The notes beneath the pieces were generated by a model. That model was not told the DNA's origin, made no database searches, and saw only the letters and a program-made list of their open reading frames with translations. Of a DNA stretch of 64,000 nucleotides, positions 5,249 through 42,247 are shown piece by piece. How positions within the stretch are numbered: position 1 is the stretch's first letter; every line of letters starts with the position of its first letter. The DNA comes from Alphaproteobacteria bacterium. Its GTDB lineage: Bacteria > Pseudomonadota > Alphaproteobacteria > Rs-D84. The DNA is taken from the NCBI GenBank assembly GCA_017534945.1, contig JAFXVB010000024.1, positions 19,546-83,545 on the forward strand. The letters run 5' to 3'. Made by a program: the position numbers and the translations under genes.

Positions 5249-5995
5249 ATGAATCTTAGAACTTTTTTTGCAAATATGGTATGTGCAACAATCCCCGGAA
5301 AAAAACGGCGCGATATTGTGCGTATAAAAATTAAATATCGCGAATATCTGCGCGATTGTAAAAAATTTGCGTTGTCACATGTTGATGGGAAAAAGCATCG
5401 TGTTCGTATTGATGTCGGCACGCGGTCGCATAATTTGATTTTGTTGGTTGGTAATATTGCTGCTTTTAAATTTCCTTTGCATGAAAATGGATATGAAAAG
5501 ACAACCCGCGAAAAACGCATTGTTGATACTTTTTCAAAAATCAGCCCTATAAAAATTCCAAAGTTAGATGTTTTGCAATGGGGTGATATAACTGTGCGCA
5601 AATATGAATTTGCAGATGGTGTATTGTTAAAAAAAATAAAGCCACAAATTGTAATGCAATACCGCAATAAAATTTCAACACAATTGGCTGAATTTATTTT
5701 TGCAATCGGGAATGCAGACCCGGTTGAATTACGCGATTTAAAATTAGACCCATACGACAAACCTGGATATATGCATGGTTGGTTTCATAATGATATTGCC
5801 GAAAATTTTACTGTGAATCCAAAAACTTTGGACATAAAATATTTTATCGATTGGGAAGATACGATTTTTTATGATTTCACACTTGGGTTTATGCATACAC
5901 GCAACAGTTGGGAAAAATCTGGGTTCATCGGTTTGACAGATGATGTGATTGATAAATATACCGCATTATATAAAAAATCCCGCAAACACGATTGA
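5249..5995 (+). CDS. Kinase-like phosphotransferase (choline/ethanolamine kinase / APH fold)
   Basis: It has a catalytic-loop-like HNDIAENF (HxDxxxxN) followed by IDWED (Brenner/IDxE metal-binding motif). The overlapping minus ORF 5131-5760 is a low-complexity antisense artefact. Confidence 0.4.
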   Translation: MNLRTFFANMVCATIPGKKRRDIVRIKIKYREYLRDCKKFALSHVDGKKHRVRIDVGTRSHNLILLVGNIAAFKFPLHENGYEKTTREKRIVDTFSKISPIKIPKLDVLQWGDITVRKYEFADGVLLKKIKPQIVMQYRNKISTQLAEFIFAIGNADPVELRDLKLDPYDKPGYMHGWFHNDIAENFTVNPKTLDIKYFIDWEDTIFYDFTLGFMHTRNSWEKSGFIGLTDDVIDKYTALYKKSRKHD

Positions 5996-6041
5996 CATTT
6001 GTCCAATCATCGGGTATCTTTTTATTCGCATTGATAGTTTT

Positions 6042-6117
6042 GCTCCCATCGTCTAGCGGTCCAGGACATCGGATTCTCATTCCGGCAACATGGGTTCGAT
6101 TCCCATTGGGAGTGCCA
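6042..6117 (+). tRNA. tRNA-Glu (anticodon CUC), CCA encoded
   Basis: A 76-nt cloverleaf. The acceptor stem is GCTCCCA/TGGGAGT, and the anticodon stem TCGGA/TCCGG carries the loop TTCTCAT (U-CUC-A). The T-arm is ATGGG-TTCGATT-CCCAT and there is a 3' GCCA. It is close to the E. coli tRNA-Glu scaffold. Confidence 0.8.
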
Positions 6118-6123
6118 GTAATT

Positions 6124-6150
6124 AAAAACGCCCCTTTTGGGGTGTTTTTA
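6124..6150 (+). terminator. Intrinsic terminator after tRNA-Glu
   Basis: aaacgcccc-tttt-ggggtgttttt: a GC stem followed by a T-run. Confidence 0.6.
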
Positions 6151-6216
6151 ATTAGTGACAGTTTCAATCACAACCGAATGCCCACAGGCGAAACGGTATA
6201 ATTTTCATGAAACACA

Positions 6217-6245
6217 TTGCTTTTTGGGCTGATTTATGATATAAT
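6217..6245 (+). promoter_or_regulatory. Sigma70-like promoter (TTGCTT-17-TGaTATAAT, extended -10)
   Basis: The -35 is at 6217-6222 and a perfect TATAAT at 6240-6245, preceded by TG. It lies about 50 nt upstream of the MuF-like gene RBS. Confidence 0.45.
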
Positions 6246-6260
6246 ACGGTCAAGTTCACA

Positions 6261-6287
6261 GACGGCATTCGTGCCGTCTTTTTTTAT
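6261..6287 (+). terminator. Terminator/attenuator-like hairpin between promoter and MuF-like gene
   Basis: gacggca-ttc-gtgccgtc followed by tttttttat. It is located between the predicted transcription start site and the RBS AAGGAG at 6297. Confidence 0.4.
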
Positions 6288-6310
6288 ACAAACAATAAAA
6301 GGAGCGATAA

Positions 6311-6916
6311 ATGGAACCAACTTATATATCGGCATTTCCAGGAATTGGTACAACAAGAATGTTCGTTGGAAATGACGGAAATATTTATGAAGCCAGCGGA
6401 GGTAGCAGAGCATGGCGTAATAACAACCCTGGAAATTTAGAATATGGAAAATTTACTCGTGATAATGGCGCAATTGGTACAGACGGCAGATTTGCCATAT
6501 TTCCAGATATAACAACAGGTTTTAATGCTATGACCGAATTATTATCAACAAATTCGTATCAAACCTTAACTGTTGAAGGGGCAATAAACAGATATGCACC
6601 ATCAACCGAAAATAATGTTGAAAATTATTTAAAATCAATAGAACGACAAACAGGTTTTACGCGTTCAACACCAATGAACCAACTTTCAAAAGACAATTTA
6701 CTAAAACTAGCACAAGCAATGGCTAAACATGAAGGAAATATGATCGGGAAAAAACGTTTTGTTTCTAAACATGAAAAATATGTTTGGGTGACGGTTGGTG
6801 ATGATAAAGTTAGACCAGAACACGAAATACTGGACGGCGAAATTAGAACATGGTATGATACACCACATCCAGGGGAAGAATACGGATGTCGATGCCATGC
6901 AGAAAGTGTTGATTAA
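6311..6916 (+). CDS. Phage head-morphogenesis (SPP1 gp7 / Mu F)-like domain protein with uncharacterised N-terminal domain
   Basis: The C-terminus WVTVGDDKVRPEHEILDGEIRTWYDTPHPGEEYGCRCHAE matches the Phage_Mu_F signature (DxRVRxxH…LDG…P…NCRC). There is a strong RBS, aaaggag-N5-ATG. The N-terminal about 110 aa (…RAWRNNNPGNLEYG…FAIFPD…) is unassigned. Confidence 0.6.
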   Translation: MEPTYISAFPGIGTTRMFVGNDGNIYEASGGSRAWRNNNPGNLEYGKFTRDNGAIGTDGRFAIFPDITTGFNAMTELLSTNSYQTLTVEGAINRYAPSTENNVENYLKSIERQTGFTRSTPMNQLSKDNLLKLAQAMAKHEGNMIGKKRFVSKHEKYVWVTVGDDKVRPEHEILDGEIRTWYDTPHPGEEYGCRCHAESVD

Positions 6917-7394
6917 ATTTTTTATTTTATTGTTATGTATGGCCTGTTCAAGCCGGGTTGAATATACTGAAGATTTTTTTGATGGATTACCTCAGCCAGA
7001 TAAAACCGAAATTTTTGATTTGCCCGATGATTACGGAATAAAAAAGATAGATACTTTTTTCATAGATATAAATAACAACGGTAAAAATGACACTATCAAA
7101 CGTGGTCGATTTGTAACAGGCACAGCGCATTCATACACTTTTTACGATATATATTTGGACAATGGCGAATTGCTTACGCATTTAACAACCCACGAAGGTG
7201 CCGATTGCGTTTTACGCACTTATAAATTTCAAATACAACCGTTTGTAATAACAAGTGCATCAAGACCAATCGGCAAAGATTATATGGAACCAACAAAAGC
7301 AAAAATAGAAACATTTGAAATTAAAAATAATAAAATAGAATCTGTATTTAGCGAAGAATACAATCCAATTTGTGATGTTAGATATCTATTATAA
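6897..7394 (+). CDS. Small secreted/lipoprotein (possible cognate partner of the MuF-like protein)
   Basis: It starts at M35 of the listed ORF (MQKVLIKFFILLLCMACSS…), a signal peptide with a Cys lipobox-like end. It overlaps the upstream gene by 20 nt. No recognisable family. Confidence 0.45.
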   Translation: MQKVLIKFFILLLCMACSSRVEYTEDFFDGLPQPDKTEIFDLPDDYGIKKIDTFFIDINNNGKNDTIKRGRFVTGTAHSYTFYDIYLDNGELLTHLTTHEGADCVLRTYKFQIQPFVITSASRPIGKDYMEPTKAKIETFEIKNNKIESVFSEEYNPICDVRYLL

Positions 7395-7440
7395 CTGTTT
7401 CTAAACACGTTTCATTTCATCGAAATCATGAACAGATTTT

Positions 7441-8487
7441 TTATTTTGTGACTGTGTCGGCTATTTTTTGTGCTGCACGATTTTCAACCAGTGATTTCTT
7501 TGCCATTTTTTCGAGTCTGGTTGGATTATCAAATAAATCCGTCAATGTGGACGCCAACCAACGCGGTGTGAATTTTGATTGCTCAATCGAAAAACCACCA
7601 CCCAATTTTGCAAATGCATCTGCATTGGCGGCTTGGTCTGGATTGATATTTAATGGCACCAAAATCGCCGCACGACCAATTGTTTCAAGTTCTATGACGG
7701 TACTGGCCCCACTGCGCCCAATGACCAAATCAGCATCTTTGATTGCAGACGCCATATCGCGAATAAAAGACAATACATTTGCATGGATTTTATGTTCTGC
7801 ATAAAACCTTTGCAATTTTTCAACATTTTCTGGGCGTGTTTGGTGTGTCACAAAAATCTTTTTATTTTTCATAGCCGCAATCGCCAAAGGCACAACTTCA
7901 TCTAAAATTTGTGCGCCCAATGATCCACCGGTCACCAACAAATGAGATTTGTTTGGAATTTTTGAACCTGCCACCATCAAAAAATCCGCACGCACAGGTA
8001 ATCCTGTATAAACAATTTTTGTGTTCGTTTTCGCCGGCATACCGTTGACCGTTGGAAAACTGGTCATCAAAGTTTTTACCCAACGCATAGAAAATCTGTT
8101 TGCGCGACCAATCGCCGCATTTTGTTCATGCAAATATGTTGGTATGCGCCACACATGCGCGGCAAACACAACCGGCACAGATGCATATCCACCAAATGCA
8201 ACAACGCGTGCCGGGCGTGAAATTATAAACCGTAAAATCAATGCTGTGGCAGATACCGCAATTTTGAACAATGCGTATATTTGTTTTACACGACTTTTTG
8301 CACCAACGCCCGATGCCCAAATATGAACAATACGCGAACCCGCGGGTGCAGAATCACGCACCATTTTATCAGTTCGCCCATCACAAGAAATTGTAATTTT
8401 ATGACCACGCGATGCTAATTCTGTTGCCGCCGCCATTGCTGGGAACACATGTCCACCGGTTCCACCTGTTGCAATCCATATTTTCAT
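7441..8487 (-). CDS. murG: Undecaprenyldiphospho-muramoylpentapeptide beta-N-acetylglucosaminyltransferase
   Basis: MKIWIATGGTGGHVFPAMAAA… is the GT28 N-terminal signature. 348 aa, with an RBS aaggaaa. Confidence 0.9.
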   Translation of the reverse strand: MKIWIATGGTGGHVFPAMAAATELASRGHKITISCDGRTDKMVRDSAPAGSRIVHIWASGVGAKSRVKQIYALFKIAVSATALILRFIISRPARVVAFGGYASVPVVFAAHVWRIPTYLHEQNAAIGRANRFSMRWVKTLMTSFPTVNGMPAKTNTKIVYTGLPVRADFLMVAGSKIPNKSHLLVTGGSLGAQILDEVVPLAIAAMKNKKIFVTHQTRPENVEKLQRFYAEHKIHANVLSFIRDMASAIKDADLVIGRSGASTVIELETIGRAAILVPLNINPDQAANADAFAKLGGGFSIEQSKFTPRWLASTLTDLFDNPTRLEKMAKKSLVENRAAQKIADTVTK

Positions 8488-8561
8488 TTTGTTTTCCTTT
8501 GTTTTATGATATAATTATAGCATTAGGTATATAAACTTGCAAATAATAAGGAGAATAAAAA

Positions 8562-9089
8562 ATGAACACTATTGAAAGGAGAAACAAGATAAAGTTATTG
8601 TTGCCACGCGCAGTTAGTTATGGTGTTTATCCTGAAAAAACCATAGAAAATTGCAACGAGATTATTAAATTGATTTCCAATGAACCAAATAAAAAATTGC
8701 AACATACATATTTCAAAGCGTTGGCTGATGCATTATTTATGAAAAGTCCCAGTTTCTTTTTGGGAACAAGGGTGGAACATCATGAAAAAATGTTAAAACA
8801 GCAAACACCAGAAATTCGTTCTATGTTGCGTAAATTAAAAAGATTACATTTTGATATAGATTACAAGCCTGGGTGTATGTTAAAAATCAATGCGTTAATA
8901 CGGGCATATGGTGGCACAATTATGACCAAAGAGCAAATGCGTGAACAAAAAAAGGAAAAGTTTGCAAGGGCCGCAGAAAAAGTTTTGAACAATGAAAAAA
9001 TGCCGCGTAAACAGAAAAAAGAATTAAAAAAAGGTATTAAAAAACTGGGGCCTGCTCTTATTATGGGAAAGTTTGTAAACGGCAAATAA
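8562..9089 (+). CDS. Hypothetical protein, lysine-rich C-terminus, inserted in dcw cluster
   Basis: 175 aa with no recognisable family. The C-terminal 50 aa are very basic (…KQKKELKKGIKKLGPALIMGKFVNGK). It runs opposite to the flanking murG/ftsW. Confidence 0.4.
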   Translation: MNTIERRNKIKLLLPRAVSYGVYPEKTIENCNEIIKLISNEPNKKLQHTYFKALADALFMKSPSFFLGTRVEHHEKMLKQQTPEIRSMLRKLKRLHFDIDYKPGCMLKINALIRAYGGTIMTKEQMREQKKEKFARAAEKVLNNEKMPRKQKKELKKGIKKLGPALIMGKFVNGK

Positions 9090-9091
9090 GA

Positions 9092-9120
9092 AAAAACGAC
9101 CATTATGGTCGTTTTTTTTA
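9092..9120. terminator. Bidirectional intrinsic terminator (ORF 8562-9089 / ftsW)
   Basis: aaaacgaccat-t-atggtcgttttttttatt. Confidence 0.6.
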
Positions 9121-9135
9121 TTTCTTTTTTTTATG

Positions 9136-10299
9136 TTATTTCCACTTATCTTCGCGGATTAAAGCCAATGTCAATCCAAAGAGCAAACAAAAGCCCAAGA
9201 AAGAACTGCCCCCAAATGAAATAAACGGTAATGTCATGCCTTTTGGTGGCATTATATGTAATGTTGTTGCCAAATTTAAACAAATCTGCATCGCAAACAA
9301 TGCCGTCGTTCCAGTTATAACATACAAAACAAATTTATCGCGTGCGTTGGATGCCGCTTTCATTAAACGCTTTATAACCAATACGAATAAAAACAATAAT
9401 GCACAACCCGCCAAAGCACCAAAATCTTCAACCAACGCAGCATACACAAAATCGTTTTCAGCCATTGGTAAATTTTCCGCCGCAAATGCTTCGTCACCCA
9501 TACCAAACAATCCACCTTGGCGGATTGCATTAACGGCATAACCAACCTGACTTAATGGATCCAACGGTTTCAAAAAGTCCATAATACGTTCATGAACGTG
9601 ATGAAATAAAAAGAACGCGCCGATACCACCACACGCAAATATTCCAAATAATATCGCCATTATTTTTTTTGGTAAACCCGCCACAAAAAGCATTATTCCC
9701 AACACCAAGAAATACAAAATAGATGTCCCAACATCGGGTTGACGAAACATTATTCCCAAACACATGCAAAACACAAATATATATGGCCACCAAGATATCC
9801 AATTTAATTGCCATGCTTCGCGATTCAAGAAAATATTATCGCCGTATTTTTCCTTCATCTTGGTTAAAAACCATGCTGTTAAAATAATAAATCCGGGCTT
9901 CATAATATCCGATGGCATCAAACGCAATCCGTCCAACACCACCCAACGCGCAGAACCATTAACAACATGCGGATGAACAAATGTCAATAATAACAATGGC
10001 AAACATACTAAAACATTTAACCATGCCAATCGCAATACCCATTTTTGATTAAACATACTGGTTATAAACAAAGTTCCAATTCCAACGATATAAAAAGGAA
10101 ACATTTTCACAAAAAAATAATACCAAGGAAGCGAACCATGAACACGAATAGAATTCGCACTGCCGGTTGATATTGCCGCAATCATACCAACAAAAATCAT
10201 AATACCAATATACAACAACAACCAACGGTCAATACCGAAATACCAATCGGTTAATTGACTGTCATCTGTGCGACGCGCGACTTCTTGAATAACCGCCAT
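9136..10299 (-). CDS. ftsW: Peptidoglycan glycosyltransferase FtsW (SEDS family)
   Basis: 387 aa, polytopic, with FtsW/RodA family motifs. It sits in dcw context next to mraY and murG. Confidence 0.85.
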   Translation of the reverse strand: MAVIQEVARRTDDSQLTDWYFGIDRWLLLYIGIMIFVGMIAAISTGSANSIRVHGSLPWYYFFVKMFPFYIVGIGTLFITSMFNQKWVLRLAWLNVLVCLPLLLLTFVHPHVVNGSARWVVLDGLRLMPSDIMKPGFIILTAWFLTKMKEKYGDNIFLNREAWQLNWISWWPYIFVFCMCLGIMFRQPDVGTSILYFLVLGIMLFVAGLPKKIMAILFGIFACGGIGAFFLFHHVHERIMDFLKPLDPLSQVGYAVNAIRQGGLFGMGDEAFAAENLPMAENDFVYAALVEDFGALAGCALLFLFVLVIKRLMKAASNARDKFVLYVITGTTALFAMQICLNLATTLHIMPPKGMTLPFISFGGSSFLGFCLLFGLTLALIREDKWK

Positions 10300-10322
10300 A
10301 TTCTCCCTCTATCCGTTTTTAC

Positions 10323-11456
10323 CTATGCAAATTTTAACAAAATCAATGCAACCCCAGAAAACAAAATAGACATGATGAAAAATCTATCAACAATTTTTGT
10401 TTCTGCCCAACCCAATTCTTCAAAGTGATGATGCAATGGTGCGCGCAAAAATATGCGTTTTCCGGTGCCTGTGATTTTGCGTGTGATTTTAAAACACATT
10501 GTTTGCAAAAACGAAGACAATAAAATCAAAACCATCATGCCGGCGGCAATACCCATAATAATTTCTGATTTTAATAACATCGCCACAGTTCCCATAAATC
10601 CGCCCAATGCCAATGACCCGACATCGCCCATAAAGATTGATGCAGGTTTCGCGTTATACCACAAAAATCCAAGCGTGGCACCCGCCATTGCGCCCAATGG
10701 TGCATACAGACTGCTGGTTTCTGGTAAAAACACCACACTGTCCATAAAACCAATTCTGGTTGCGCCATATAATGCAACCACCAAAACAATCAAGACCGGC
10801 AAATATAATTTTGATAACATGCCATCTAAACCGTCTGTGATATTTGTTGCATTTGCACTGCCACAAATAACGAAATAGCCGAATATATAATATAAAAAAC
10901 CAAGTGTTATTGACATGCCAAATACATCACCCAAAACCCAAGAATTTAATGGTAAAAACACAGACGACCCAATAATTATCGATAAATCTGGCACATATGG
11001 TGGCATTGTTTTATTTATCAAATATACCAATACAATGACGAATAAAGCCTCCATCCCCAGACGAAATGCCGGCGATAATCCATTTGATGCTTTTTTAGAT
11101 TGTGATGTCACCTTTTTATAATCATCAACAAAACCCAACGCACCAAACATAACCAAAGATAATAACGCAATCCAACCCGCGCTGTTTGATAATGGCATGA
11201 ACAATACAGATGCCAATATCACAGCAATCAAAATCAAAATACCACCCATTGTTGGTGTTCCTGCCTTGGCACGATGTGATTCTGGGACATTTTCACTTAT
11301 TGGCTGACCTTTTTTTTGCCATGCATGCATCCAGCGCACAAATCCACGACCAAAGACCAGCATTATTAAAAATGCAACACCAAACGCCGCCGCAAATTGC
11401 GCCCAACCACTGGCAAATGCATAAAAACCATGAGAAATAAAGTAATCTGCCAACAT
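10323..11456 (-). CDS. mraY: Phospho-N-acetylmuramoyl-pentapeptide transferase
   Basis: MLADYFISHGFYAFASGW… The start was moved to the ATG at 11456, which has an AAGGAG RBS. The listed TTG start at 11480 includes the RBS. Confidence 0.9.
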   Translation of the reverse strand: MLADYFISHGFYAFASGWAQFAAAFGVAFLIMLVFGRGFVRWMHAWQKKGQPISENVPESHRAKAGTPTMGGILILIAVILASVLFMPLSNSAGWIALLSLVMFGALGFVDDYKKVTSQSKKASNGLSPAFRLGMEALFVIVLVYLINKTMPPYVPDLSIIIGSSVFLPLNSWVLGDVFGMSITLGFLYYIFGYFVICGSANATNITDGLDGMLSKLYLPVLIVLVVALYGATRIGFMDSVVFLPETSSLYAPLGAMAGATLGFLWYNAKPASIFMGDVGSLALGGFMGTVAMLLKSEIIMGIAAGMMVLILLSSFLQTMCFKITRKITGTGKRIFLRAPLHHHFEELGWAETKIVDRFFIMSILFSGVALILLKFA

Positions 11457-11532
11457 AGAATTTTCTCCTTTGATACACAATCATTTTATCATAAATTCTA
11501 TGCTTTACCAATATATTTACAGAAAAAATTTA

Positions 11533-13608
11533 TTAGAACACTCCGCCAACTTGGGGCACAGATTGTTTAACCGTTTCGCCGGTCGCATTTATGATAACAG
11601 GCGCAACAATCATCGGTTCGTTTGGCCCCTGGGTTGCTTTGAAAGCCTCGGTTATTATCACACCGTTTGGATCGCGTGTGGCGGCAACGCCATTACTGCG
11701 ATTTACACGCACAAAATGCAATCCATCAGGCACAGAAAATGGTTGGTTTTTCTGGTCGCGCAATGCAACCGTCATAAAATCTGAAAACACATGCGCCGCA
11801 GTATATGACCCGGTTCCCTTACCCAATGGACGCGGCGTATCATATCCCAAATACACACCGGCAATTAAATTTTTAGTAAATCCAATAAACCATGCGTCCT
11901 TTACATCGTTTGTTGTTCCGGTTTTACCAGCGATTGTATGACCCGGCACCATTGCTTGGCGACCGGTTCCGCGTTCAACCGCACCCTGTAATATAGAAAT
12001 CAATTGGTATAAACTTTGTGGGTCTGATAAAGCCGGTCCCAAATCATCATCATCCGGTGGCAACGCAGAATCCGTCCATTGCTCAACCGTCGGTTCATTA
12101 CCGCCGATTGTATGACCATATCTGTCTTGGACATAATCAACAAGGCGAGGTTTCACAACATGCCCACCATTTACAAATGCAGAATATCCCGATACCAAAT
12201 TTTGCAATGTTGTTTCACCCGAACCCAACGCCATAGATAAATTCACATCTTTTAATGATTCAGGATACACGCCAAACCGTTTTGCCACATCAATCGCATC
12301 CTTGACCCCGATTTGTTCAACAAGACGCACAGTCGGTACATTGCGCGATGTTTCCAACGCCAAACGCAACGGAACATCCCCAAGGAATTTTTTATCACTG
12401 TTTTCCGGTTTCCATTCTGTATCAGCATCTTTCCACCCAACAATTGGTGCATCAAGTAAAATAGCCTCTGGCGACATGCCTTTTTCCAACGCAGACAGAT
12501 AAACAAATGGTTTTATCGTACTGCCAATTTGGCGCATTGCTTGGGTTGCACGATTAAACGAACTTTGCGCAAAAGAACGACCACCCGACATTGCCAAAAC
12601 GCGCCCTGTATATGGATTCATAACAATAATTGCACCTTGGAGTTTTTCATCCCCATGACGATTTGCATTGTAATTATCCAATGTTTTATTCAATGCATCA
12701 CTTGCCGCGCGTTGTAATTCAGGAACGATTGTTGTTTTGATATATAAACCTTGGTTATATAAATCTTCGCGCCCGATTGTTTCCAGTAATTGACGGCGAA
12801 CCTCTTCTGCAAAGTATTGGAATTTATCTTCCATTTGGGCGGTAAAACCACTGTTGATATTTAATTCTTCGGCGGCGGCGGCGGTTGCCTCTTCCTTGGT
12901 AATAAAACCTTCATCTTGCATGCGGCGCAACACATAATTGCGACGTTCAACAGCCTTGTCCCGATTATTTGGTGCCTTTGGCAATGATGCCAAAAATGCA
13001 CATTGTGCCAAAGTTAAATCTTTGACCGGTTTATTGAAATACATCAATGCAGCCGAACCCACACCATATGCACGCGCACCCAAAAAGATTTGATTCAAAT
13101 ACAATGTCATAATGTGTTGTTTTGAAAATGAACGTTCCAAACGAAGTGCCAATATTGCCTCTTTCACTTTGCGTGAAATTGTGCGATCAGATGTCAAAAA
13201 GAAATTCTTGGCCACCTGTTGCGTTATGGTTGATGCCCCAGAAAACTTTGTATCAAAACCAAAAACGCGCATAAAATTATTCAAAGATGCCCGTATTATA
13301 CCCTGGATATCAATACCAGGATGTGTCCAGAAATTTTGGTCTTCGGCGGCAATAAATGCATTTACCAATTGGGGTGGCATATCCGCAAAATCAATAAACA
13401 CACGACGTTCTTCGGCATATTCAATCAAAAGCGAACCGTCCGCCGCATAAAGTCGTGTTGCCACCGGTGGCGCATATGTCGCCAATTTTTTATAATCTGG
13501 CAAATCATTTCCATATATAAAAACCAACGCCGCCAATGCAGCAATCATACCGGTAAAACACCAAAATATTAGATTCAAAAAGATGCGCAGAATTTTTTTA
13601 AATGTCAT
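11533..13608 (-). CDS. mrcA: Penicillin-binding protein 1A (bifunctional transglycosylase/transpeptidase)
   Basis: It has a GT51 domain (…RLERSFSKQHIMTLYLNQIFLGARAYGVGSAA…) and the transpeptidase motifs STIKPF (SxxK), SRN and KTGTT. Confidence 0.9.
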   Translation of the reverse strand: MTFKKILRIFLNLIFWCFTGMIAALAALVFIYGNDLPDYKKLATYAPPVATRLYAADGSLLIEYAEERRVFIDFADMPPQLVNAFIAAEDQNFWTHPGIDIQGIIRASLNNFMRVFGFDTKFSGASTITQQVAKNFFLTSDRTISRKVKEAILALRLERSFSKQHIMTLYLNQIFLGARAYGVGSAALMYFNKPVKDLTLAQCAFLASLPKAPNNRDKAVERRNYVLRRMQDEGFITKEEATAAAAEELNINSGFTAQMEDKFQYFAEEVRRQLLETIGREDLYNQGLYIKTTIVPELQRAASDALNKTLDNYNANRHGDEKLQGAIIVMNPYTGRVLAMSGGRSFAQSSFNRATQAMRQIGSTIKPFVYLSALEKGMSPEAILLDAPIVGWKDADTEWKPENSDKKFLGDVPLRLALETSRNVPTVRLVEQIGVKDAIDVAKRFGVYPESLKDVNLSMALGSGETTLQNLVSGYSAFVNGGHVVKPRLVDYVQDRYGHTIGGNEPTVEQWTDSALPPDDDDLGPALSDPQSLYQLISILQGAVERGTGRQAMVPGHTIAGKTGTTNDVKDAWFIGFTKNLIAGVYLGYDTPRPLGKGTGSYTAAHVFSDFMTVALRDQKNQPFSVPDGLHFVRVNRSNGVAATRDPNGVIITEAFKATQGPNEPMIVAPVIINATGETVKQSVPQVGGVF

Positions 13609-15132: not shown

Positions 15133-18100
15133 TTATTCTTCGCTGATGTCGACACTGATGATGTCACCATAGTCACCAACAGGTTCACCGCCGACATAAC
15201 AATGGATTTTCGAACCGATGTTTTCCATCCATTCTTTGATAGCCTCATTTTCAGCGTTTTCGTATTTTGCCTTTTGTGCGGTTGATACGATGTCATGCGC
15301 CAACAATGAAGTCAAACCACCGCCAACAACAGCCGCCCCGGCATCCAACGCAAGACGTTTGCCCGCCCCAGATTCTTTGTTATCTGTCGCCACATTTTCA
15401 CAAGTTGTTTCCAATTCAGACAATGTATTCGACAAATTTGCCAATTCTGTGCTGTCCCATTCATATGTATCGGGGTCACGCAATTCGCTAACCGCCGCAA
15501 CATACGCCTGACCTTTTTCTGTTTCAATAACATTCAATCGCAATGCGCTTATTGCCGCAGGCAACCCAGCAACTTCACTGCGGAAATTATTGTATTCTGG
15601 ACCATTATAGGCATAACCGCCGCCCTTTGTAGTTGTTACACTGATTGTATCCGGCAACCCGTTACAATATCCGTCTACGACAGATTGTGCAGGATTATAT
15701 ATAAATGATGGTGTTGTATAACCGCCAAAATTCGAACAATTTTTCTTGGTATACACACCGTTTCCATAATTATAGTATGTATCAACCGTCGATTTTGTAT
15801 AGGTTTTACCATCACTTCCTGTATATGTTGTTGTTCCGGATTTTGTTCTGCCCGCCTTCCAGAATTTATCCAAATGTGATTTTGCAGCATTCAAATAATT
15901 TTGGATTGTTGCCAATTCTGCAACAGAACCTGTGGCATTATATGTTCTTTCACTGATACTTTTCCACAGATTAGATGCCGCAGTCGCATTGTTCACGCAA
16001 CCTGGATAATCTGTTGGGTCGGTTGACGCATCACTGAAATCACACAATGTGCTTACTTTTGTGATAAGTTGCGATACACCGTTTGCTTCATCAACTTGCA
16101 GACCATATTTTGCATCGACGGCGGCAACCGCATCACGTCCTTCGCGTGTCACAGCACCTTTTATTGTATTTAATGTGACACTTGTTGGGATTGTCATTGA
16201 TGCCTTGTTACTGTCAACGGATGATAATTTTGCTTTTGCAGTCCGCGCATAACGTAATGCTTCATCCATTTTTGTTTGGCTTTTGCTGCGAACCGCGGCA
16301 TCAAAGGCTTCACGCGCTTTTTTGGCCTGGTCTGTACATTCTTCGGCAGAATTCGCCTTGGCCATATTCTTGTTCAACAATCCGCCCAATCCAGAACTGG
16401 ACGCGTTGCTTTGCAATGAATCCATGCCCCATGCAGACAACCCAGCACCAAATACACCAGACCCCAAAGTCACCCACAAATCGGTATTTTTATCTTTTTG
16501 TGAACCTTCGCCGGCTTCCTTACGCGCTCTTTCACCAACTTTATCGGTCACAGTTTTGATTGTGTTGTCACTTATCCATGAACCGCATGTGAACGGGTCA
16601 CCGGTTGAAAAGTATGCATTTGTTTCGCCGCCCAAAGCATTTTGAATATCTTTGTCTTCGGACATAACTGTGATTTTCACGCGGCAAAATGAATTATACA
16701 AATCATTACTTTGAACAGACCCGTTTTCGCCCAAACCTTTGGCACCGTAATCACTTTTCATTTTGCTTTTCAATTTTGCCCAAACAAATGTTGCGTTTGG
16801 ATTTGCGCCAGAATTTTGTGCCAAGCAAATGTTTTGTTCTTTGGTCAATTTGGCCTTGTACTGGGCCTGGGCCTCCATTTCGACATCAACCAAAACATCT
16901 TTGAACACAGTATTAATTGCCGAATTTTCTTGGGCAATTGATTTTGAAATCATGTGTGGTGTTGAACAACCGGACACACCGCCTTCTTCGTAATCACAAA
17001 TGTTTGTTCCGGAATTTCCACATTCGCAAATGTGTTTACCGTCTTGGTTAACCTCTTGAACATCTTGCATATATTGATCATTTGCAGATGTGCGCCATGC
17101 AGAACCGACATTTGTTTCATTTCCCCAACCGGTACGGACATCGGCTTCGCCGTCGGCAATACCCATTTTGGCAATCGCCAAACTTTCCGCACAAACATCA
17201 CTGTTTTTAACCGTTAATGCGCATAACCCTTGGACAATTGTGTAATCCAACACACCGCCAACTTTGTTCATAGATTTATTAAAGCCATCACTGGTGGTGT
17301 TGTATGTCGCCAAACTTATATCATTACGGTTACGATAGCAATTTTGATAATTTGAACCGCACATAGATTTTACACAATTTGATACAACATTACCGCACTG
17401 TTTTTTCAATTGAGCAATCGCCGCATCATTATATGCCGTTGATAAATCTGCGTTCAAAGCCGCGACAACCGGCACTTTGTCATCACCAGTATTTGTGTAT
17501 TCTGGGAACAACGCATCAAATGCACCGTCATCACTGTATGTATAATTGTACACATTGCCTTCGGCACTTAAAGTTGCCGCCATATATTTACAATTTGCAT
17601 CGGTATTGACCGCCGCAGTACATCCACGAACAATATCTTTGTATGTATTACCTTTATTAATAGAACCGGTCATGTCTTTGCCGCCAAACACGCGGGAATA
17701 ACATGCCGCCCCCGAACCACCGCCGCATGAACGAATTGCACATGTTTTAAATGTTTCGATGCATTTATCTTTGGCAGTTTTATCGAATTTTTCAACCATA
17801 TCGGTGACCTTGACCCCGATGATGTCTTTTTTATTACGGGTTGAATATGCTTCGTCAAAGATTTCTTCGCGGGTATCAGGATCGGTCAAATCTTTCTTGC
17901 TTGGGGTTTTCGCCTTGAAAGTCATATAGCAATATTGATTTGAACCAATTGTATCTTGGCATGCCGCACGATAGAATTTACGAACAGAACTGGCCGTTTG
18001 GGTTTCTGTCACATTTGCTTCATCAATTGTGGACGATTTTGATTGGTCTGCAACAAAATCAGCCGTTCCCAAAACGCCAAATGTCACACCTTCGACACAA

Positions 18101-18957
18101 CGATATGGGTTTTTCGCGCATGCATTGACAAAGCAACTGTCGATTACTTTATAACAAGTATTGACCGCATTTGCCGCCGCCAATGTTGCACCGTCGGTCA
18201 TCCATTTATATGTATCACCATCGGTTGGTTTTAATTTGTTATTTGCAGGCTTTGTCATAACCTTTTCGCCAAACAATTGTTGAAAACCTTCTTTTTGGCA
18301 ACGCGACAAAGTTGAATCACACATAACCGCCTGTTTTTTGAATTCATCTTCACTGGTGCATAATTCGAAATCTTCGCCACAGACATTATCTTTGGTTAAA
18401 CAATTTTTATATTTTTTAACACAATCCGCGGTGGATAATTTATTACGTGTCGCCGCACCAATAATGTCAATCCCCATAACCGAACCATCGGTTGGATATG
18501 TATAACGCGCAATTTCTGTTTGATTGGTGCCATCAACATAGGAAGATACAGAGGATAAAGCGGAGATATTAGATACACCAAACAAACTGTTTATCGCGGT
18601 TGATGAACATTGATACAAAGTACTGAAACATTCACCCATGTGACCATGGAACAAAACATTTGTTGTGCATTCTTCAAAATCAGAACCACACGCATTGTCA
18701 GCCTTCATACAACTGCGATATTCTTCGATGCATTCAGCATCACTGAGCAGTGGGTTCGCCGTTGTGGACGATGATGATGTGCCGGATGTATTCGCAACAG
18801 TATTATTCGACTTTACCACATTTGACAATGATGCCAATCGACGCGATGCCGCCGTACCAATATTTGGTGTTGTCATTGCAACACGCGCCGCAGAATATGC
18901 CGCACCACACACGCACATTACCGCCAGAAAACTAACCGATTTTTTGAAAAAATGCAT
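15133..18957 (-). CDS. Giant secreted cysteine-rich modular protein (1274 aa), no recognisable family
   Basis: The start was chosen at MHFFKKSVSFLAVMCVCGAAYSAA (RBS aggaga-N6-ATG; signal peptide). There are at least two clear roughly 55-aa six-Cys module repeats: ECIEEYRSCMKADNACGSDFEECT…CFSTLYQC…LFG and DCVKKYKNCLTKDNVCGEDFELCT…CDSTLSRC…LFG. Further Cys-pair motifs follow. The composition is S/T/N/G/K-rich and there is no C-terminal beta-barrel. Confidence 0.7.
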   Translation of the reverse strand: MHFFKKSVSFLAVMCVCGAAYSAARVAMTTPNIGTAASRRLASLSNVVKSNNTVANTSGTSSSSTTANPLLSDAECIEEYRSCMKADNACGSDFEECTTNVLFHGHMGECFSTLYQCSSTAINSLFGVSNISALSSVSSYVDGTNQTEIARYTYPTDGSVMGIDIIGAATRNKLSTADCVKKYKNCLTKDNVCGEDFELCTSEDEFKKQAVMCDSTLSRCQKEGFQQLFGEKVMTKPANNKLKPTDGDTYKWMTDGATLAAANAVNTCYKVIDSCFVNACAKNPYRCVEGVTFGVLGTADFVADQSKSSTIDEANVTETQTASSVRKFYRAACQDTIGSNQYCYMTFKAKTPSKKDLTDPDTREEIFDEAYSTRNKKDIIGVKVTDMVEKFDKTAKDKCIETFKTCAIRSCGGGSGAACYSRVFGGKDMTGSINKGNTYKDIVRGCTAAVNTDANCKYMAATLSAEGNVYNYTYSDDGAFDALFPEYTNTGDDKVPVVAALNADLSTAYNDAAIAQLKKQCGNVVSNCVKSMCGSNYQNCYRNRNDISLATYNTTSDGFNKSMNKVGGVLDYTIVQGLCALTVKNSDVCAESLAIAKMGIADGEADVRTGWGNETNVGSAWRTSANDQYMQDVQEVNQDGKHICECGNSGTNICDYEEGGVSGCSTPHMISKSIAQENSAINTVFKDVLVDVEMEAQAQYKAKLTKEQNICLAQNSGANPNATFVWAKLKSKMKSDYGAKGLGENGSVQSNDLYNSFCRVKITVMSEDKDIQNALGGETNAYFSTGDPFTCGSWISDNTIKTVTDKVGERARKEAGEGSQKDKNTDLWVTLGSGVFGAGLSAWGMDSLQSNASSSGLGGLLNKNMAKANSAEECTDQAKKAREAFDAAVRSKSQTKMDEALRYARTAKAKLSSVDSNKASMTIPTSVTLNTIKGAVTREGRDAVAAVDAKYGLQVDEANGVSQLITKVSTLCDFSDASTDPTDYPGCVNNATAASNLWKSISERTYNATGSVAELATIQNYLNAAKSHLDKFWKAGRTKSGTTTYTGSDGKTYTKSTVDTYYNYGNGVYTKKNCSNFGGYTTPSFIYNPAQSVVDGYCNGLPDTISVTTTKGGGYAYNGPEYNNFRSEVAGLPAAISALRLNVIETEKGQAYVAAVSELRDPDTYEWDSTELANLSNTLSELETTCENVATDNKESGAGKRLALDAGAAVVGGGLTSLLAHDIVSTAQKAKYENAENEAIKEWMENIGSKIHCYVGGEPVGDYGDIISVDISEE

Positions 18958-19058
18958 CTCCATTCTCCTATATTTACGATTTATTTTATCATATTTATGA
19001 AGAAAAGGAAAGAGATTTTTCAAAGTTCAAATATGGAAATAATATTTCTGTATCGTCA

Positions 19059-20042
19059 TTAATTGTCAAGTATGGCTTTCAATTCCAACATATCATCGGG
19101 CAATGGGGCTTTAAAAGTCATCTGTTTACCTGTTATTGGGTGTTTTAACGACAAATATGACGCGTGCAACATTTGACCGTTGTGCGTTTTCAAAAATTCA
19201 AGCAGTTCTGGATTTTTAACACTGCCAAACCGATTGGTGCCACGTCCGTATGTCGGGTCGCATAAAACTGGAAATCCATGCGCAGATAAATGAACACGAA
19301 TTTGATGCGTTCGACCCGTCAATAAATTACAACGAAATTGGGAAATCCCAAAACGCGACCAAACATCGATGACGGTCACCTCTGTGGTGGCGGGTTTGCC
19401 CCCGGACTTTACCATTGTCATTTTTTGTCGATTACGCGATGAACGCGCAATATTGCCGGTAATTGTTGCACTTTCCCAATTCGGCACCCCCCAAACAAAC
19501 GCATCGTATTTACGGGTTAAATCATGATTCGAAAAGGTTTTTACCAATTCGCGATATGCCGCATCACTTTTGGCAAAAATCATAACGCCGGATGTATCTT
19601 TGTCCAAACGATGAACAACCCCGGGACGCACATCGCCACCAATCGCAGACAACGATGTATAACACAATAAATTTTGAACAAGTGTCCCTGTTTTATTTCC
19701 AGCCGATGGATACATCACAACACCGCGTGGTTTGTTTATCACAATAATATCTTCGTCTTGGTATAAAATATCTAAATCAAAATCGCATGATACATTATCC
19801 GCCGCCGCCGCGTTTTTTGGGGAATCAGGTACCAACACAATATACATTTCGCCACCACGCACTTTATCGGCAAATTTAACCGGCGCACCGCCACGCGACA
19901 CAGTGAATTTTTGGATTTCACTGCGCGAAAATTCAGGCATCTTTGTGGCTAAAAATTTATCAAGTCGCATTCCTGCATCTGCATCAACAACAATAAATTC
20001 GCGTTGCATAAATATTCCTATTTCTTTCCAAAATCCGCCCAA
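19059..20042 (-). CDS. rluD: 23S rRNA pseudouridine synthase, RluA/RluD family (S4 domain + catalytic domain)
   Basis: It has the HRLDKDTSGVMIFAK catalytic motif and an N-terminal S4-like region. The likely true start is MQREFIVV at 20008. Confidence 0.85.
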   Translation of the reverse strand: MGGFWKEIGIFMQREFIVVDADAGMRLDKFLATKMPEFSRSEIQKFTVSRGGAPVKFADKVRGGEMYIVLVPDSPKNAAAADNVSCDFDLDILYQDEDIIVINKPRGVVMYPSAGNKTGTLVQNLLCYTSLSAIGGDVRPGVVHRLDKDTSGVMIFAKSDAAYRELVKTFSNHDLTRKYDAFVWGVPNWESATITGNIARSSRNRQKMTMVKSGGKPATTEVTVIDVWSRFGISQFRCNLLTGRTHQIRVHLSAHGFPVLCDPTYGRGTNRFGSVKNPELLEFLKTHNGQMLHASYLSLKHPITGKQMTFKAPLPDDMLELKAILDN

Positions 20043-20506
20043 TCGGGGCCACGTTTACATTTCGATATATCAATTTCAAATTCATAATCGCCGGTCGCAG
20101 GACATGTAAGCAGACCGGTTGTTTCGGCTTGCTCTGCATCTTGGGGAGCATTGCGATATGCAAACTTTATTTCCTTTGGCGCCGCAATACAAACAAGACG
20201 CAAATGTCCAACCATTTCACCCATCGGTGATATCCAAACACGAACACTGTCGGCTTCGCCATAGCAAGGAAATGCGTCCAGGTAATATAAAATTAAACCA
20301 TTTTTCAATAATGTGCGGTCTGTGCCACGAAAATGTCCGGTGTATTGCGATAATGGTAATCCTGTCACGCCATGCCAATCAACAGTCGTGGAAAACAAAC
20401 TGACCCGCGGCCCAGGTAATGGTGCCGGTGGTGTCGGTGTGGTGGTTGTATCTGCGAACGCAGAACAACAAAACAATACAGATAATAACGCGATTAATTT
20501 TCTCAT
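20018..20506 (-). CDS. Secreted hypothetical protein (signal peptide, Thr/Pro-rich linker, Cys-containing domain)
   Basis: MRKLIALLSVLFCCSAFA|DTTTTPTPPAPLPGP… It is the last gene of the pilin-like array, before rluD. Confidence 0.5.
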   Translation of the reverse strand: MRKLIALLSVLFCCSAFADTTTTPTPPAPLPGPRVSLFSTTVDWHGVTGLPLSQYTGHFRGTDRTLLKNGLILYYLDAFPCYGEADSVRVWISPMGEMVGHLRLVCIAAPKEIKFAYRNAPQDAEQAETTGLLTCPATGDYEFEIDISKCKRGPDWADFGKK

Positions 20507-21036
20507 TTTGCGAAATCCCCCAATTTAACCACAATCTTTTTAACGCCAGCCGATGGGGCACGTAAAGTATAAACAAACCCGGCACGCGCACCCGCATCCA
20601 ATAATGTGACCGGTGGCGCAAACTGTTCCGGTGCATTTATTTGTTTGCCATCGCCATCGTATGTCATGATAAACAGGTTCGGCGCACCGTAAATTTCAGG
20701 ACTGCGATTTTCAATTATACCCGATACGATAAAGTGATTTACACCATTTCCGTCCGGCGCCAATGTCGTTTTAACAATCGATGCAGTAAGTGGCGCGTTC
20801 GTCACAGAATTTTTACGATAATGTGTTATTGCAACAACAGAAAAAATTATCGCAGACAGCAAAGCACACAACGCCGCTAAAAATACAAAAAATTTATTTT
20901 TACGATTTGGTGTTTTTACCATAAATGTATGACCGCAAATCGCGCACTTTACGGGCATCGCCGGAATTTTATTCAACGTATATTCTGTTCTACAAAAATC
21001 GCATTTTATTTTCATATCACATCCTTTATAGCACAA
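20503..21036 (-). CDS. Zinc-ribbon (MJ0042-type CxxC…CxxC) + TM + DUF3426-like domain protein
   Basis: The N-terminus MKIKCDFCRTEYTLNKIPAMPVKCAICGHTF carries two CxxC pairs. It is followed by a TM helix (FFVFLAALCALLSAIIFSVVAI) and a roughly 100-aa beta-rich C-domain. This architecture is typical of DUF3426 proteins. Confidence 0.55.
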   Translation of the reverse strand: MCYKGCDMKIKCDFCRTEYTLNKIPAMPVKCAICGHTFMVKTPNRKNKFFVFLAALCALLSAIIFSVVAITHYRKNSVTNAPLTASIVKTTLAPDGNGVNHFIVSGIIENRSPEIYGAPNLFIMTYDGDGKQINAPEQFAPPVTLLDAGARAGFVYTLRAPSAGVKKIVVKLGDFAK

Positions 21037-21037
21037 A

Positions 21038-22354
21038 TTATTGCAATTTCAACAAACGATATTTTGCACGAACATCGTTTGCGATATCGTTTAAAGCATT
21101 TTGAAAATCTGCAACCGTCGCATTTGCATTGGCCGCGATTGCACCAAAGCGCCGTCCGGCAAACGTTGTTGAATCAAATTCTTTTTTCGGCAAGAAACTT
21201 ATCATACGATTAAGGTCGCCTAAATACAGGTCTGAAAACACAGCCGACGAAGTGGACGCGTCCCAATAATATCCCGGATTTGTTGGGTCTGTAATTTTAC
21301 TGGAAACAATTAAACGCGGTGTGATTGACCCGGCATATCCAACCGTCACATGTGTTGCATTAACACTGCCGTATGTCATTTTAACAGAACCGTTCACAGT
21401 TAAAATTACAGGTTTCCTTTCCGGATTATCTATACTTAAATTTGGTAATGTCAGGTTTGTCACCAATAAATCGTTCGTTGTAAACGATGAAAATTTTCCT
21501 GTATCCGTCAAAGATAAACGACCCGTAATTTCAAGATTTCTGGAATCAGATGTAAGCGACCCAGACACAGTTGCACTTTTTGTATAAAATTCACTGTCAA
21601 CTGTTGTGCGATTATTAAAAATTAAATTACGCGTATTCAGTTTTCCTATTGTTAAAAATTCATCAAAAGAACCCGAAACAAACGCCATTTTACGAACATT
21701 TAAAACATCATGCGACCCAAGGTTTAATGATGAACGCATTGTTGCATCATCTGGGTTTTGGGACGGCACGCGCCACAAATATAACGCATTATCACGATTT
21801 ATTGTCGTGGTTGTGACAATTCCATTTTTTGCATCTATACCAATATCAGCAACAGATGCACGCCATGTTCCGTTTGCACCATACGCTTTATTACCATCAA
21901 CAAAACCAACATGACCATTTGCCAAGTTCAATATTTGATGTGTACGAAACGGTGATATTTTTTCAGATTCATAAACCACCACACCTTGCAAAGTTGATTG
22001 TCCATTAAAATCTTTGGATTTCAAAACGCGTAATTGATATTTGGTATCTGGGGCATTTATGATTCCGTCGCCCAACCCATATTTTGCCAATTCACCAATT
22101 TCAACACGCACAATATTGCGACCCAATGGTTTTAATAATGTTTCACGATTATCAATTATATACCTTTCCAAAGCCCCTTGGATTTCGGTCATTTGTTTTG
22201 TGATTTCGATATTTTCACGACGTTCAATTGCACCGCGTTGATATTTGAAAACAAACGGAATAATAAGCATTGCCAAAGATACACTAAGCAGTAATTCAAC
22301 CAACATATTACCACTTTGATTTTTTTTCGATAAAGATTTATTTAATATTTTCAT
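21038..22354 (-). CDS. Large type IV pilin-like protein (prepilin-type N-terminus, ~420-aa C-terminal domain), paralog 3
   Basis: The N-terminus is …KKNQSG|NMLVELLLSVSLAMLIIPFV (G-1, E+5, hydrophobic alpha1). The start ATG overlaps the upstream stop (ATGA) at 22351-22354. The LNLGSHDVLNV motif is shared with paralog 2. Confidence 0.6.
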   Translation of the reverse strand: MKILNKSLSKKNQSGNMLVELLLSVSLAMLIIPFVFKYQRGAIERRENIEITKQMTEIQGALERYIIDNRETLLKPLGRNIVRVEIGELAKYGLGDGIINAPDTKYQLRVLKSKDFNGQSTLQGVVVYESEKISPFRTHQILNLANGHVGFVDGNKAYGANGTWRASVADIGIDAKNGIVTTTTINRDNALYLWRVPSQNPDDATMRSSLNLGSHDVLNVRKMAFVSGSFDEFLTIGKLNTRNLIFNNRTTVDSEFYTKSATVSGSLTSDSRNLEITGRLSLTDTGKFSSFTTNDLLVTNLTLPNLSIDNPERKPVILTVNGSVKMTYGSVNATHVTVGYAGSITPRLIVSSKITDPTNPGYYWDASTSSAVFSDLYLGDLNRMISFLPKKEFDSTTFAGRRFGAIAANANATVADFQNALNDIANDVRAKYRLLKLQ

Positions 22355-42190: not shown

Positions 42191-42247
42191 AAATATTTTT
42201 ATTTCGTGATTTATCTCTGGACAGTTTTATGGTATAATAATAACACC

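Follow-up and report, generated by a model that had tools for sequence, protein, structure and literature searches.

The segment at positions 6216-7394 of the window (the whole 64-kb stretch of alphaproteobacterial DNA analysed here) is best read as a domesticated, relocating, phage-derived effector/immunity-like cassette and not as a decaying prophage. It comprises two open reading frames (ORFs) on the forward strand: ORF1 (6311-6916; 201 amino acids (aa); ribosome-binding site AAGGAG at 6300-6305), in which a predicted peptidoglycan-cleaving domain is joined to a segment resembling the phage head protein MuF, and ORF2 (6897-7394; 165 aa from a conserved ATG), a lipoprotein-type partner. The two genes overlap by exactly 20 nt (6897-6916) in different frames. 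Upstream of ORF1, at a distance of 193 nt, lies tRNA-Glu(CTC) (6042-6117, forward strand; 58.1 bits against the Rfam tRNA model), the sole tRNA identified in the window by ARAGORN. An initial annotation, made from the sequence alone, had described a tRNA-Glu(CUC) followed by a 201-aa ORF that overlaps a lipoprotein-like ORF by 20 nt, and its coordinates, motifs and overlap were correct. It had left two origins side by side, a toxin/immunity-like pair or the last remnant of a prophage. The former fits best, given an enzyme that lacks an export signal, a periplasmic lipoprotein that always occurs with the enzyme family, and genes combining MuF with GH108 or Tlde1 domains beside the cassette in congeners; the latter is contradicted by strong purifying selection on both genes across ~30 species. 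What is new is the joining of PHA02564 to a MuF core, a family of CarG-like partners, a cassette that stands alone with a putative leader terminator, and its relocation among tRNA-linked sites. Domain identities, cassette boundaries and the selection result are held with much higher confidence than the mechanism proposed below.

Matches to PHROG families divide ORF1 into two parts, aa ~29-143 and aa 155-200. The first part (6395-6739, forward strand), which the initial annotation had set apart as a distinct N-terminal domain, corresponds to the PHA02564 / Enc34 ORF39-type muralytic domain and contains the motif WRNNNPGNL (aa 35-43), with RNNNPGN at aa 36-42, as well as Y95, Y106 and E141. Its matches are to modules inside very large virion proteins: phrog_873 (E=4e-25), a family of tape-measure proteins and an injection transglycosylase. 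Comparison with the structure of the Enc34 enzyme (PDB 7Q47) gave E=3.7e-10 with a profile and E=1.5e-4 with the single sequence, and the AlphaFold2 model of ORF1 (predicted local distance difference test (pLDDT) 95, predicted template-modelling score (pTM) 0.87) aligned to 7Q47 in Foldseek with E=1.8e-5, a probability of 1.0 and a root-mean-square deviation of 2.8 A over 127 columns. The profile match to the N-terminus of the 1,295-aa protein Gp29 (PDB 9vvp; E=4.8e-18) was stronger than that to 7Q47. The Enc34 domain is muralytic, with Glu131 as the catalytic residue and Tyr95 and Trp79 as important ones, and a GH73-like glucosaminidase activity has been argued for it (Cernooka et al. 2022, PMC8943055). 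In the alignment, E141, Y106 and Y95 of ORF1 take the places of Enc34 Glu131, Tyr95 and Trp79, respectively. Across homologs E141 is invariant, Y106 is invariant in A4, and position 95 is aromatic with Y nearly invariant. The body of ORF1 is thereby predicted from sequence to be an Enc34-type (PHA02564) peptidoglycan glycosidase domain in which the catalytic Glu is kept.

Sequence, profile and predicted fold all tie ORF1 to Enc34 ORF39 (PDB 7Q47; PMC8943055) over the catalytic domain, including the RNNNPGN motif and the equivalents of Glu131, Tyr95 and Trp79. Unlike the phage enzyme, ORF1 lacks a C-terminal transmembrane domain and is not set in a holin/spanin lysis cassette, and it is fused to a MuF core, encoded on the chromosome and paired with a dedicated lipoprotein. 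Neither a signal peptide nor a transmembrane segment was found anywhere in ORF1. As both a transmembrane segment and lysis genes are missing, ORF1 shares the Enc34 domain but an endolysin role is unsupported.

The last ~45 residues of ORF1 form the core that is conserved in MuF/gp7, a phage head protein. This MuF / SPP1-gp7 core (6773-6910, forward strand; aa 155-200, YVWVTVGDDKVRPEHEILDG...PGEEYGCRCHAE) includes the motif DDKVRPEHEILDG...GCRC (aa 164-195) and is matched by the head-morphogenesis PHROGs 324, 4529 and 595. The MuF signature noted in the initial annotation passes a search with the Pfam profile Phage_Mu_F (PF04233; E=1.4e-9; its 39.1 bits exceed the gathering score of 29.6), and the score against TIGR01641 (SPP1 gp7), 38.1 bits, falls slightly under the cutoff of 39.65. 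In the Pfam alignment, which runs over aa 103-197, residues 103-143 fall in helices of the PHA02564 domain. The part of ORF1 that is independently MuF-like is only aa ~155-200 (~45 aa), compared with ~110 aa in a complete MuF domain. The signature stands as a core only, and the domain order is reversed relative to classical MuF toxins. A search for a solved MuF-core structure for comparison found none. In the distant homologs P0097, P0098, P0101 and P0104 the same MuF core precedes the PHA02564 domain, indicating that the two modules are linked in either order.

ORF2 is a lipoprotein-type periplasmic beta-fold protein of a small family without annotation, with a remotely CarG-like fold. The ORF as listed opens at a TTG at 6795, whereas the conserved start is the ATG at 6897. 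From this start the N-terminus (MQKVLIKFFILLLCMAC, then S) reads as a signal peptide with a lipobox-like sequence, L-C-M-A preceding C17. The ATG and the signal/lipobox-like N-terminus are kept in 30 related loci, and one congener has a canonical LIGC at the lipobox position. The rest of the protein is a periplasmic, all-beta domain that contains two conserved cysteines and a DxNxxGxxD loop; its model (pLDDT 89) shows a nine-strand beta domain after the signal peptide. The 20-nt overlap would couple translation of ORF2 to that of ORF1. Only 185 representatives of the family were retrieved at E<=1e-3 among 1.84 billion, 62 of them at E<=1e-30. Its best fold match in the PDB is CarG (4o7j; Foldseek template-modelling score 0.54-0.59, E=6e-3), a weak match, as is the profile comparison with the same protein (E=0.45). 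Among 47 family members, 30 weakly match the Pfam CarG-like family (PF21955, named carbapenem resistance protein; best E=3.2e-4), and 11 match FG-GAP_3 via a DxNxDGxxD loop. No meaningful viral structural analogue of ORF2 was found in BFVD. Likeness to CarG thus lies in the fold and in weak profile matches of relatives and is remote; the partner of CarG is a beta-lactam pathway, not a lysin. CarG, whose PDB entry also names it a carbapenem resistance protein, is periplasmic and protects its producer against its own carbapenem, a cell-wall-directed agent. A possible resemblance of CarG to the lysozyme inhibitor PliI is given no weight here.

ORF2-like genes accompany PHA02564 genes in ~60 loci. 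In dozens of alphaproteobacterial loci an ORF2-like gene (30-50% identity, with a transmembrane anchor instead of the lipobox) follows the PHA02564 gene, and in a Bdellovibrio-like metagenome-assembled genome it precedes it. Among 80 viral loci with the enzyme domain, none had an ORF2-like gene. With many cellular loci carrying the pair and none of these viral ones, the link between enzyme and partner is robust and cellular. A paralogous pair occupies a conserved housekeeping locus between parC and radC/map (L062, 6938-11056; L080, 9845-15328; L169, 12447-14606), whose products are a PHA02564 protein that is secreted, an acidic protein of low complexity, a PHA02564 protein anchored by two transmembrane segments, and a transmembrane-anchored ORF2-like protein.

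Homologs of the cassette belong to uncultured gut Alphaproteobacteria, assigned to Candidatus Enterousia in GTDB-derived records. In ~35 species representatives of Ca. Enterousia, ORF1 is 83-89% and ORF2 56-80% identical to the window proteins with the same overlap, and ORF1 homologs in ~90 clusters are exactly 201 aa long. DNA homology between the window and the congener loci is limited to ~6214/6216 through 7394-7411. The conserved unit is therefore ~6216-7394 and consists of an extended -10 promoter, a covarying leader hairpin, ORF1 and ORF2. The annotated contexts of the cassette differ in every locus examined and are devoid of integrase or phage genes. Beside the pair, murG, ftsW, MarR and orf248 are found in none of the ~35 congeners, only on contigs of the same species (L001-L004). 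The initial annotation had regarded the cassette as an interruption of the dcw cluster after murG; since the murG adjacency is confined to these own-species contigs, it is incidental, and its relevance to the dcw cluster is rejected.

Both genes are under strong purifying selection across Ca. Enterousia. Nei-Gojobori estimates over 30 loci (435 species pairs) gave a nonsynonymous rate (dN) of 0.06 and a synonymous rate (dS) of 0.89 for ORF1, a dN/dS of 0.07, and a dN/dS of 0.16 for ORF2. In the MuF core of ORF1, nonsynonymous differences (pN 0.045 vs pS 0.43) are constrained to the same degree as in the enzyme domain. Distances of the two genes covary (Mantel r=0.77; 0 of 2000 permutations). 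Such values over ~30 species rule out a decaying relic. The ORF1 copy of one congener (L032, 1753-2355) has an in-frame stop in the MuF core (EEY*CRC), so that it is a pseudogene or else reflects an error in assembly.

On its left, the conserved cassette is bounded by a promoter-like element (6217-6245, forward strand) with TTGCTT at 6217-6222, a 17-nt spacer and the extended -10 TGaTATAAT (TATAAT at 6240-6245). It was missing from the list of a consensus scan, as its -35 agrees with the consensus at just 3 of 6 positions. A corresponding element, TTG(A/C)TTTTTT...TG(T/A)GATATAAT, precedes ORF1 at every cassette locus, even where protein identity falls to 60%. Between promoter and ribosome-binding site sits a hairpin followed by seven T residues (6260-6286, forward strand; 8 bp with 5 GC pairs and a 4-nt loop), which resembles an intrinsic terminator, was matched by a terminator scan at 6260-6279 and has a fold z-score of -2.3. 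RNAalifold on 22 distinct leaders recovered a 7-bp consensus stem with compensatory changes at 6 of the 7 pairs. The order across loci is promoter, ~13-17 nt, GC-rich hairpin with T7-9, AAAGGAG and ATG, and several context classes have a second leader hairpin with a T-run. A relaxed-threshold Rfam search of the leader RNA returned no family other than tRNA. From these features we infer that the hairpin may act as a promoter-proximal terminator keeping expression low or conditional. The copy of the gene embedded among phage genes in L009 (see below) is without this leader.

In at least 20 loci the cassette lies downstream of, and on the same strand as, a tRNA gene. Sites at tRNA-Glu(CTC) comprise the window, L033, L036 and L039, and those at tRNA-Glu(TTC) many loci; tRNA-His (L021, L022, L025) and tRNA-Pro(GGG) (L042, L047) are used as well. 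The tRNA itself, directly 5' of the cassette in the window, is outside the conserved block. Hence the tRNA link proposed in the initial annotation is recurrent in relatives, with four tRNA species, while the window itself shows no att repeat or integrase. The att-like repeat of the tRNA 3' end that it called for was likewise found in congeners only: a direct repeat of the tRNA-Glu 3' end beyond the cassette is absent from window positions 5900-9200, whereas in congeners the array is closed by a second tRNA 3' end together with its terminator (L013, 53 nt at 96%; L018, 23 nt at 91%). In congeners a ~71-nt repeat (TTCAAAAACACCTTAACATCTTTCCCGAACAACAACAAATCACGAATAAAATCAACTCGTGAATTGCACAG) occurs on both flanks of the cassette and between neighbouring cassettes of 0.4-1.5 kb, which encode GNAT, small membrane proteins and a nucleotidyltransferase. 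Copies were located in L013 (9823-9893 and 11092-11162) and also in L017, L027, L038, L041, L169 and others, and in many genomes of Ca. Enterousia arrays of this repeat are tied to tRNA-Glu(TTC), with no integrase close by. The window, where the cassette is a bare two-gene unit, has no copy of the repeat, and no integrase or recombinase gene was found in the window or in L169-L171. The cassette thus belongs to the flexible genome and changes its place, apparently with the help of a recombinase encoded elsewhere. This arrangement resembles tRNA-linked islets and att-flanked, integrase-less cis-mobilizable elements in the position of the cassette 3' of a tRNA, in congener islets bounded by a repeat of the tRNA 3' end, and in the 71-nt repeats; it differs from them in that the window has neither the att repeat nor the 71-nt repeat.

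A link to phage heads is seen in a distant relative (L009 and L010), where an ORF1 homolog with 61% identity has a T7-type terminase (nuclease half) on one side and on the other a Head-tail_con portal, after which comes a Bbp19 gene. The lipoprotein gene that overlaps this homolog downstream is only weakly related to the ORF2 family (hhalign probability 13%). The TerL-portal-Bbp19-p86 cluster also occurs in three other loci, L052, L054 and L022; the portal is immediately followed by a PHA02564-only gene in L052 and L054, and in the congener L022 the TerL-portal-Bbp19 genes lie 7-9 kb from the cassette. These phage-derived clusters (L009, 7080-10891; L054, 7016-10933; L052, 3519-8259; L022, 18173-20589) contain the nuclease half of a terminase (~275-297 aa), a portal of the T7 type, optionally a PHA02564 gene, then Bbp19 and a transmembrane/coiled-coil protein. 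They are kept across genera at 50-70% identity, lie near bamA in L009 and L054, and may be domesticated. Beside the cluster in L022 there is a 159-aa ORF whose N-terminus looks, by eye, like the N-terminal domain in phage BPP-1's tail fibre (Mtd). In addition, some congeners carry genes with canonical N-terminal MuF domains within a few kb of the ORF1/ORF2 cassette, fused either to the lysozyme domain GH108 and PG_binding_3 (L012, 12714-13916, reverse strand; L022, 7559-8812) or to the L,D-transpeptidase domain Tlde1/YkuD (L029, 6837-8033). Small secreted, lipoprotein or (multi-transmembrane) membrane ORFs stand beside these genes, and an orphan N-terminal fragment from this family occurs in L029 as well. 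N-terminal MuF with variable, peptidoglycan-targeting C-termini, small ORFs and an orphan fragment together are the pattern of a polymorphic effector locus.

MuF has been described as a tag for effectors delivered by capsids (Iyer et al. 2017, 'polyvalent proteins', PMC5512222; Jamet et al. 2017, PMC5576092). As in the MuF polymorphic toxins of these studies, a MuF/gp7 signature is fused here to an enzymatic effector domain and a small ORF follows directly; congeners add canonical N-terminal MuF fusions to GH108 or Tlde1 beside the cassette, and the L009 homolog lies in a packaging module. Unlike those toxins, ORF1 has the reverse domain order and only a ~45-aa MuF core independent of the enzyme domain, its predicted target is peptidoglycan (a word with 0 occurrences in the MuF-toxin survey, PMC5576092), the pair in the window stands alone with its own promoter and putative terminator and has neither portal nor terminase in its vicinity, and a 165-aa lipoprotein takes the place of a small cytoplasmic immunity protein. 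As domain order and prophage context differ, the pair fails two defining features of MuF toxins. A second set of parallels is offered by secreted cell wall effectors. In Xanthomonas, X-Tfe(XAC2609) is a cytoplasmic lysozyme-like effector and X-Tfi(XAC2610) a periplasmic lipoprotein inhibitor (bioRxiv 10.1101/2023.08.28.555164). Like this pair and the type VI secretion system pairs Tse1/Tsi1 and Tlde1/Tldi1, the cassette combines a peptidoglycan hydrolase lacking a Sec signal with a bicistronic periplasmic beta-fold (lipo)protein, here a candidate inhibitor. It differs from all three in the lack of any sequence or Foldseek relationship and of a secretion-signal domain, and in its predicted vehicle, a phage-type capsid.

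Considering these comparisons, ORF1 and ORF2 could operate as an effector/immunity pair. The MuF core would dock the lysin to the portal or procapsid of a BPP-1-like podophage or of a phage-derived particle, in which the enzyme would leave the cell as capsid cargo and, during ejection, cut the cell wall of the recipient from the periplasmic side. In the producer, the ORF2 lipoprotein would bind and block the enzyme in the periplasm, guarding against incoming or leaked lysin; by analogy with the known pairs, ORF2 probably neutralises ORF1. The leader terminator would hold expression low until read-through is induced. A capsid-delivered lysin with an immunity partner is favoured because the enzyme has no export signal, the partner is periplasmic, and MuF is a tag of capsid effectors. 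For the mechanism as a whole, including lipoprotein immunity and gating by the leader terminator, we see the chances as evenly balanced. A more elaborate form, in which the host keeps the cassette as a 'capsid-loaded bacteriocin', appears improbable: the MuF-core lysin would board a resident phage-derived element (the TerL-portal-Bbp19 cluster being the candidate) or infecting podophages and so reach competitors, with immunity from the CarG-like lipoprotein, gating by antitermination, and travel in a hitherto undescribed system of tRNA-anchored cassette arrays marked by the 71-nt repeat and without a local recombinase.

Several observations weigh against capsid delivery with ORF2 as immunity protein. 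The order of ORF1, with the enzyme N-terminal and the MuF part C-terminal, is the reverse of that in described MuF toxins, and of MuF only the core is present. The 64-kb window holds no portal, terminase, capsid or other phage gene, and beside the TerL-portal-Bbp19 clusters of relatives there are no capsid or tail genes, so that a working particle is hypothetical. In IMG/VR, none of 178 PHA02564 matches was full-length over ORF1 and none had an ORF2-like neighbour. ORF2 of the window has no match in Pfam, PHROGs, NCBIfam or PADLOC, and no similarity to known lysozyme inhibitors was detected, its likeness to CarG being weak. The paralogous pairs with export signals in the housekeeping locus mean that ORF2-like proteins could be regulators and not inhibitors. 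Finally, lysis by ORF1, binding and inhibition by ORF2 and termination in the leader are all predicted activities.

The paralogs also bear on a different role, that of a housekeeping pair for cell wall remodelling. ORF1 would then serve growth or division as an autolysin (glucosaminidase), with ORF2 as a membrane-anchored protein that regulates or activates it and the MuF core as a repurposed segment, and the position near murG, ftsW and mraY would reflect this role. The parC-radC/map locus (L062, L080, L169), where the enzyme has a signal or transmembrane anchor and the partner a transmembrane anchor, matches such a picture, and so do the strong purifying selection and a cassette that abuts murG in the window species. 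Yet ORF1 itself has no signal peptide or transmembrane segment even though its partner is exported, the murG adjacency is missing in ~35 congeners, and the cassette sits among accessory cassettes and changes its location. The phage-head MuF core is constrained as strongly as the enzyme domain, and tight leader termination would be unusual for a housekeeping enzyme. Altogether, a housekeeping role seems unlikely. Delivery through a type IV secretion system (T4SS), or another contact-dependent system, would keep the effector/immunity logic but turn the C-terminal MuF-like segment into a secretion signal. Its model is X-Tfe(XAC2609)/X-Tfi(XAC2610), whose cytoplasmic lysozyme-like effector and lipoprotein inhibitor fit the logic of the cassette; T4SS signals are usually C-terminal, like the MuF core of ORF1, and the window encodes a VirD4/TraG-type coupling protein at 42110-44530. 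The C-terminus of ORF1 is, however, a bona fide MuF/gp7 core by sequence and has no XVIPCD-like domain, the core is N-terminal in the permuted homologs, the L009 pair lies between terminase and portal, and no other T4SS genes were identified beside the cassette in any locus. We consider this route doubtful, to the point of being improbable.

A further possibility is that the cassette acts against phages. As a superinfection-exclusion or anti-phage module, periplasmic ORF2 would block the ejection lysin of incoming related phages, and ORF1 would be a mere co-evolving template or decoy. The ORF1 homolog with a downstream lipoprotein gene inside the phage head module of L009 could be taken this way, PHA02564 domains are common in virion proteins (tape measure, injection transglycosylase, Gp29 of PDB 9vvp), and the cassette lies among variable accessory genes. 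For a decoy it would be odd that ORF1 is more constrained than ORF2 (dN/dS 0.07 vs 0.16); the module also has no PADLOC match, and the 0 of 80 viral enzyme-domain loci with ORF2-like genes speak against it, leaving only a slim chance for exclusion. As for an inert last prophage remnant at tRNA-Glu that drifts towards loss, the adjacency to the tRNA 3' end, the phage-type domains and the L032 copy with its in-frame stop in the MuF core are what could be expected. Such drift is hardly compatible with the low dN/dS of both genes at unchanged length over ~30 species, with the conservation of promoter, leader and gene overlap, and with a window that has no att repeat or integrase, and a dS of ~0.9 argues against very recent horizontal spread of one sequence. 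This reading is very improbable.

Within the window, the cassette is convergent with murG (7441-8487, reverse strand; TIGR01133, 255.6 bits), beyond which lie an orphan ORF, ftsW, mraY and a class A penicillin-binding protein. On identical contigs, Pfam annotation of ~10 kb on each side shows an RND pump, OEP and MarR on one side and cell wall genes on the other. No integrase or phage family was recorded for any gene in this range, in line with the initial annotation, which had seen no other phage genes and no integrase. Composition does not set the cassette apart, as its GC content of 0.35-0.41 is not distinctive against flanks of 0.31-0.45. The dcw-type cluster (9136-13608, reverse strand) is reduced and rearranged, with the class A penicillin-binding protein (Transgly and Transpeptidase), mraY and ftsW adjacent and no murD between mraY and ftsW. 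Among the larger window ORFs scanned (about two thirds of those of at least 150 aa), murC, murB, ddl and ftsQAZ were not found. Between murG and ftsW, orf175 (8562-9089, forward strand) is an orphan, lysine-rich ORF of 175 aa without a family match. It is merely 48% identical in strain L003, which is otherwise 96-99% identical to the window, and its promoter region (8485-8515) resembles that of ORF1. On the other side of the cassette, the ORF at 5249-5995 (orf248, forward strand, 248 aa) is 91% identical in L003, where its flanking genes are 96-100% identical. It had been called kinase-like and tentatively placed in the same islet; no match in Pfam, NCBIfam, PHROGs, PADLOC or the PDB backs the kinase label, which goes back to a likeness by eye to HxDxxxxN / IDWE, and the ORF falls outside the conserved block. 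PADLOC returned no defence system for ORF1, ORF2, orf248 or orf175.

Farther away, the VirD4/TraG-type T4SS coupling protein (42110-44530, forward strand; 806 aa; Pfam T4SS-DNA_transf, 9e-54) has housekeeping neighbours, namely a pseudouridine synthase, an RsmE-like methyltransferase, the Der GTPase and PNPase, and next to it is an ORF without family (44535-45797). A 1,296-aa ORF without Pfam domain (15133-19023, reverse strand) is followed by a run of five ORFs (20018-24949, reverse strand) with one weak match to Shufflon_N (pilin-like); these ORFs may form a pilus or secretion-related cluster.

If the effector/immunity reading of the cassette is true, the concept of MuF-tagged effectors would cover not only Firmicutes prophage toxins that target the cytoplasm but also enzymes of uncultured gut Alphaproteobacteria that target peptidoglycan, and a MuF tag could be retained on a chromosomal gene that stands alone, away from any prophage. 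For the Enc34-type lysozyme fold, itself described only recently, there would be a small new family of periplasmic partners, candidate proteinaceous inhibitors that would be relevant to endolysin engineering. Genomes of Ca. Enterousia would hold small cassettes in arrays anchored at tRNA genes, with no integrase close by.

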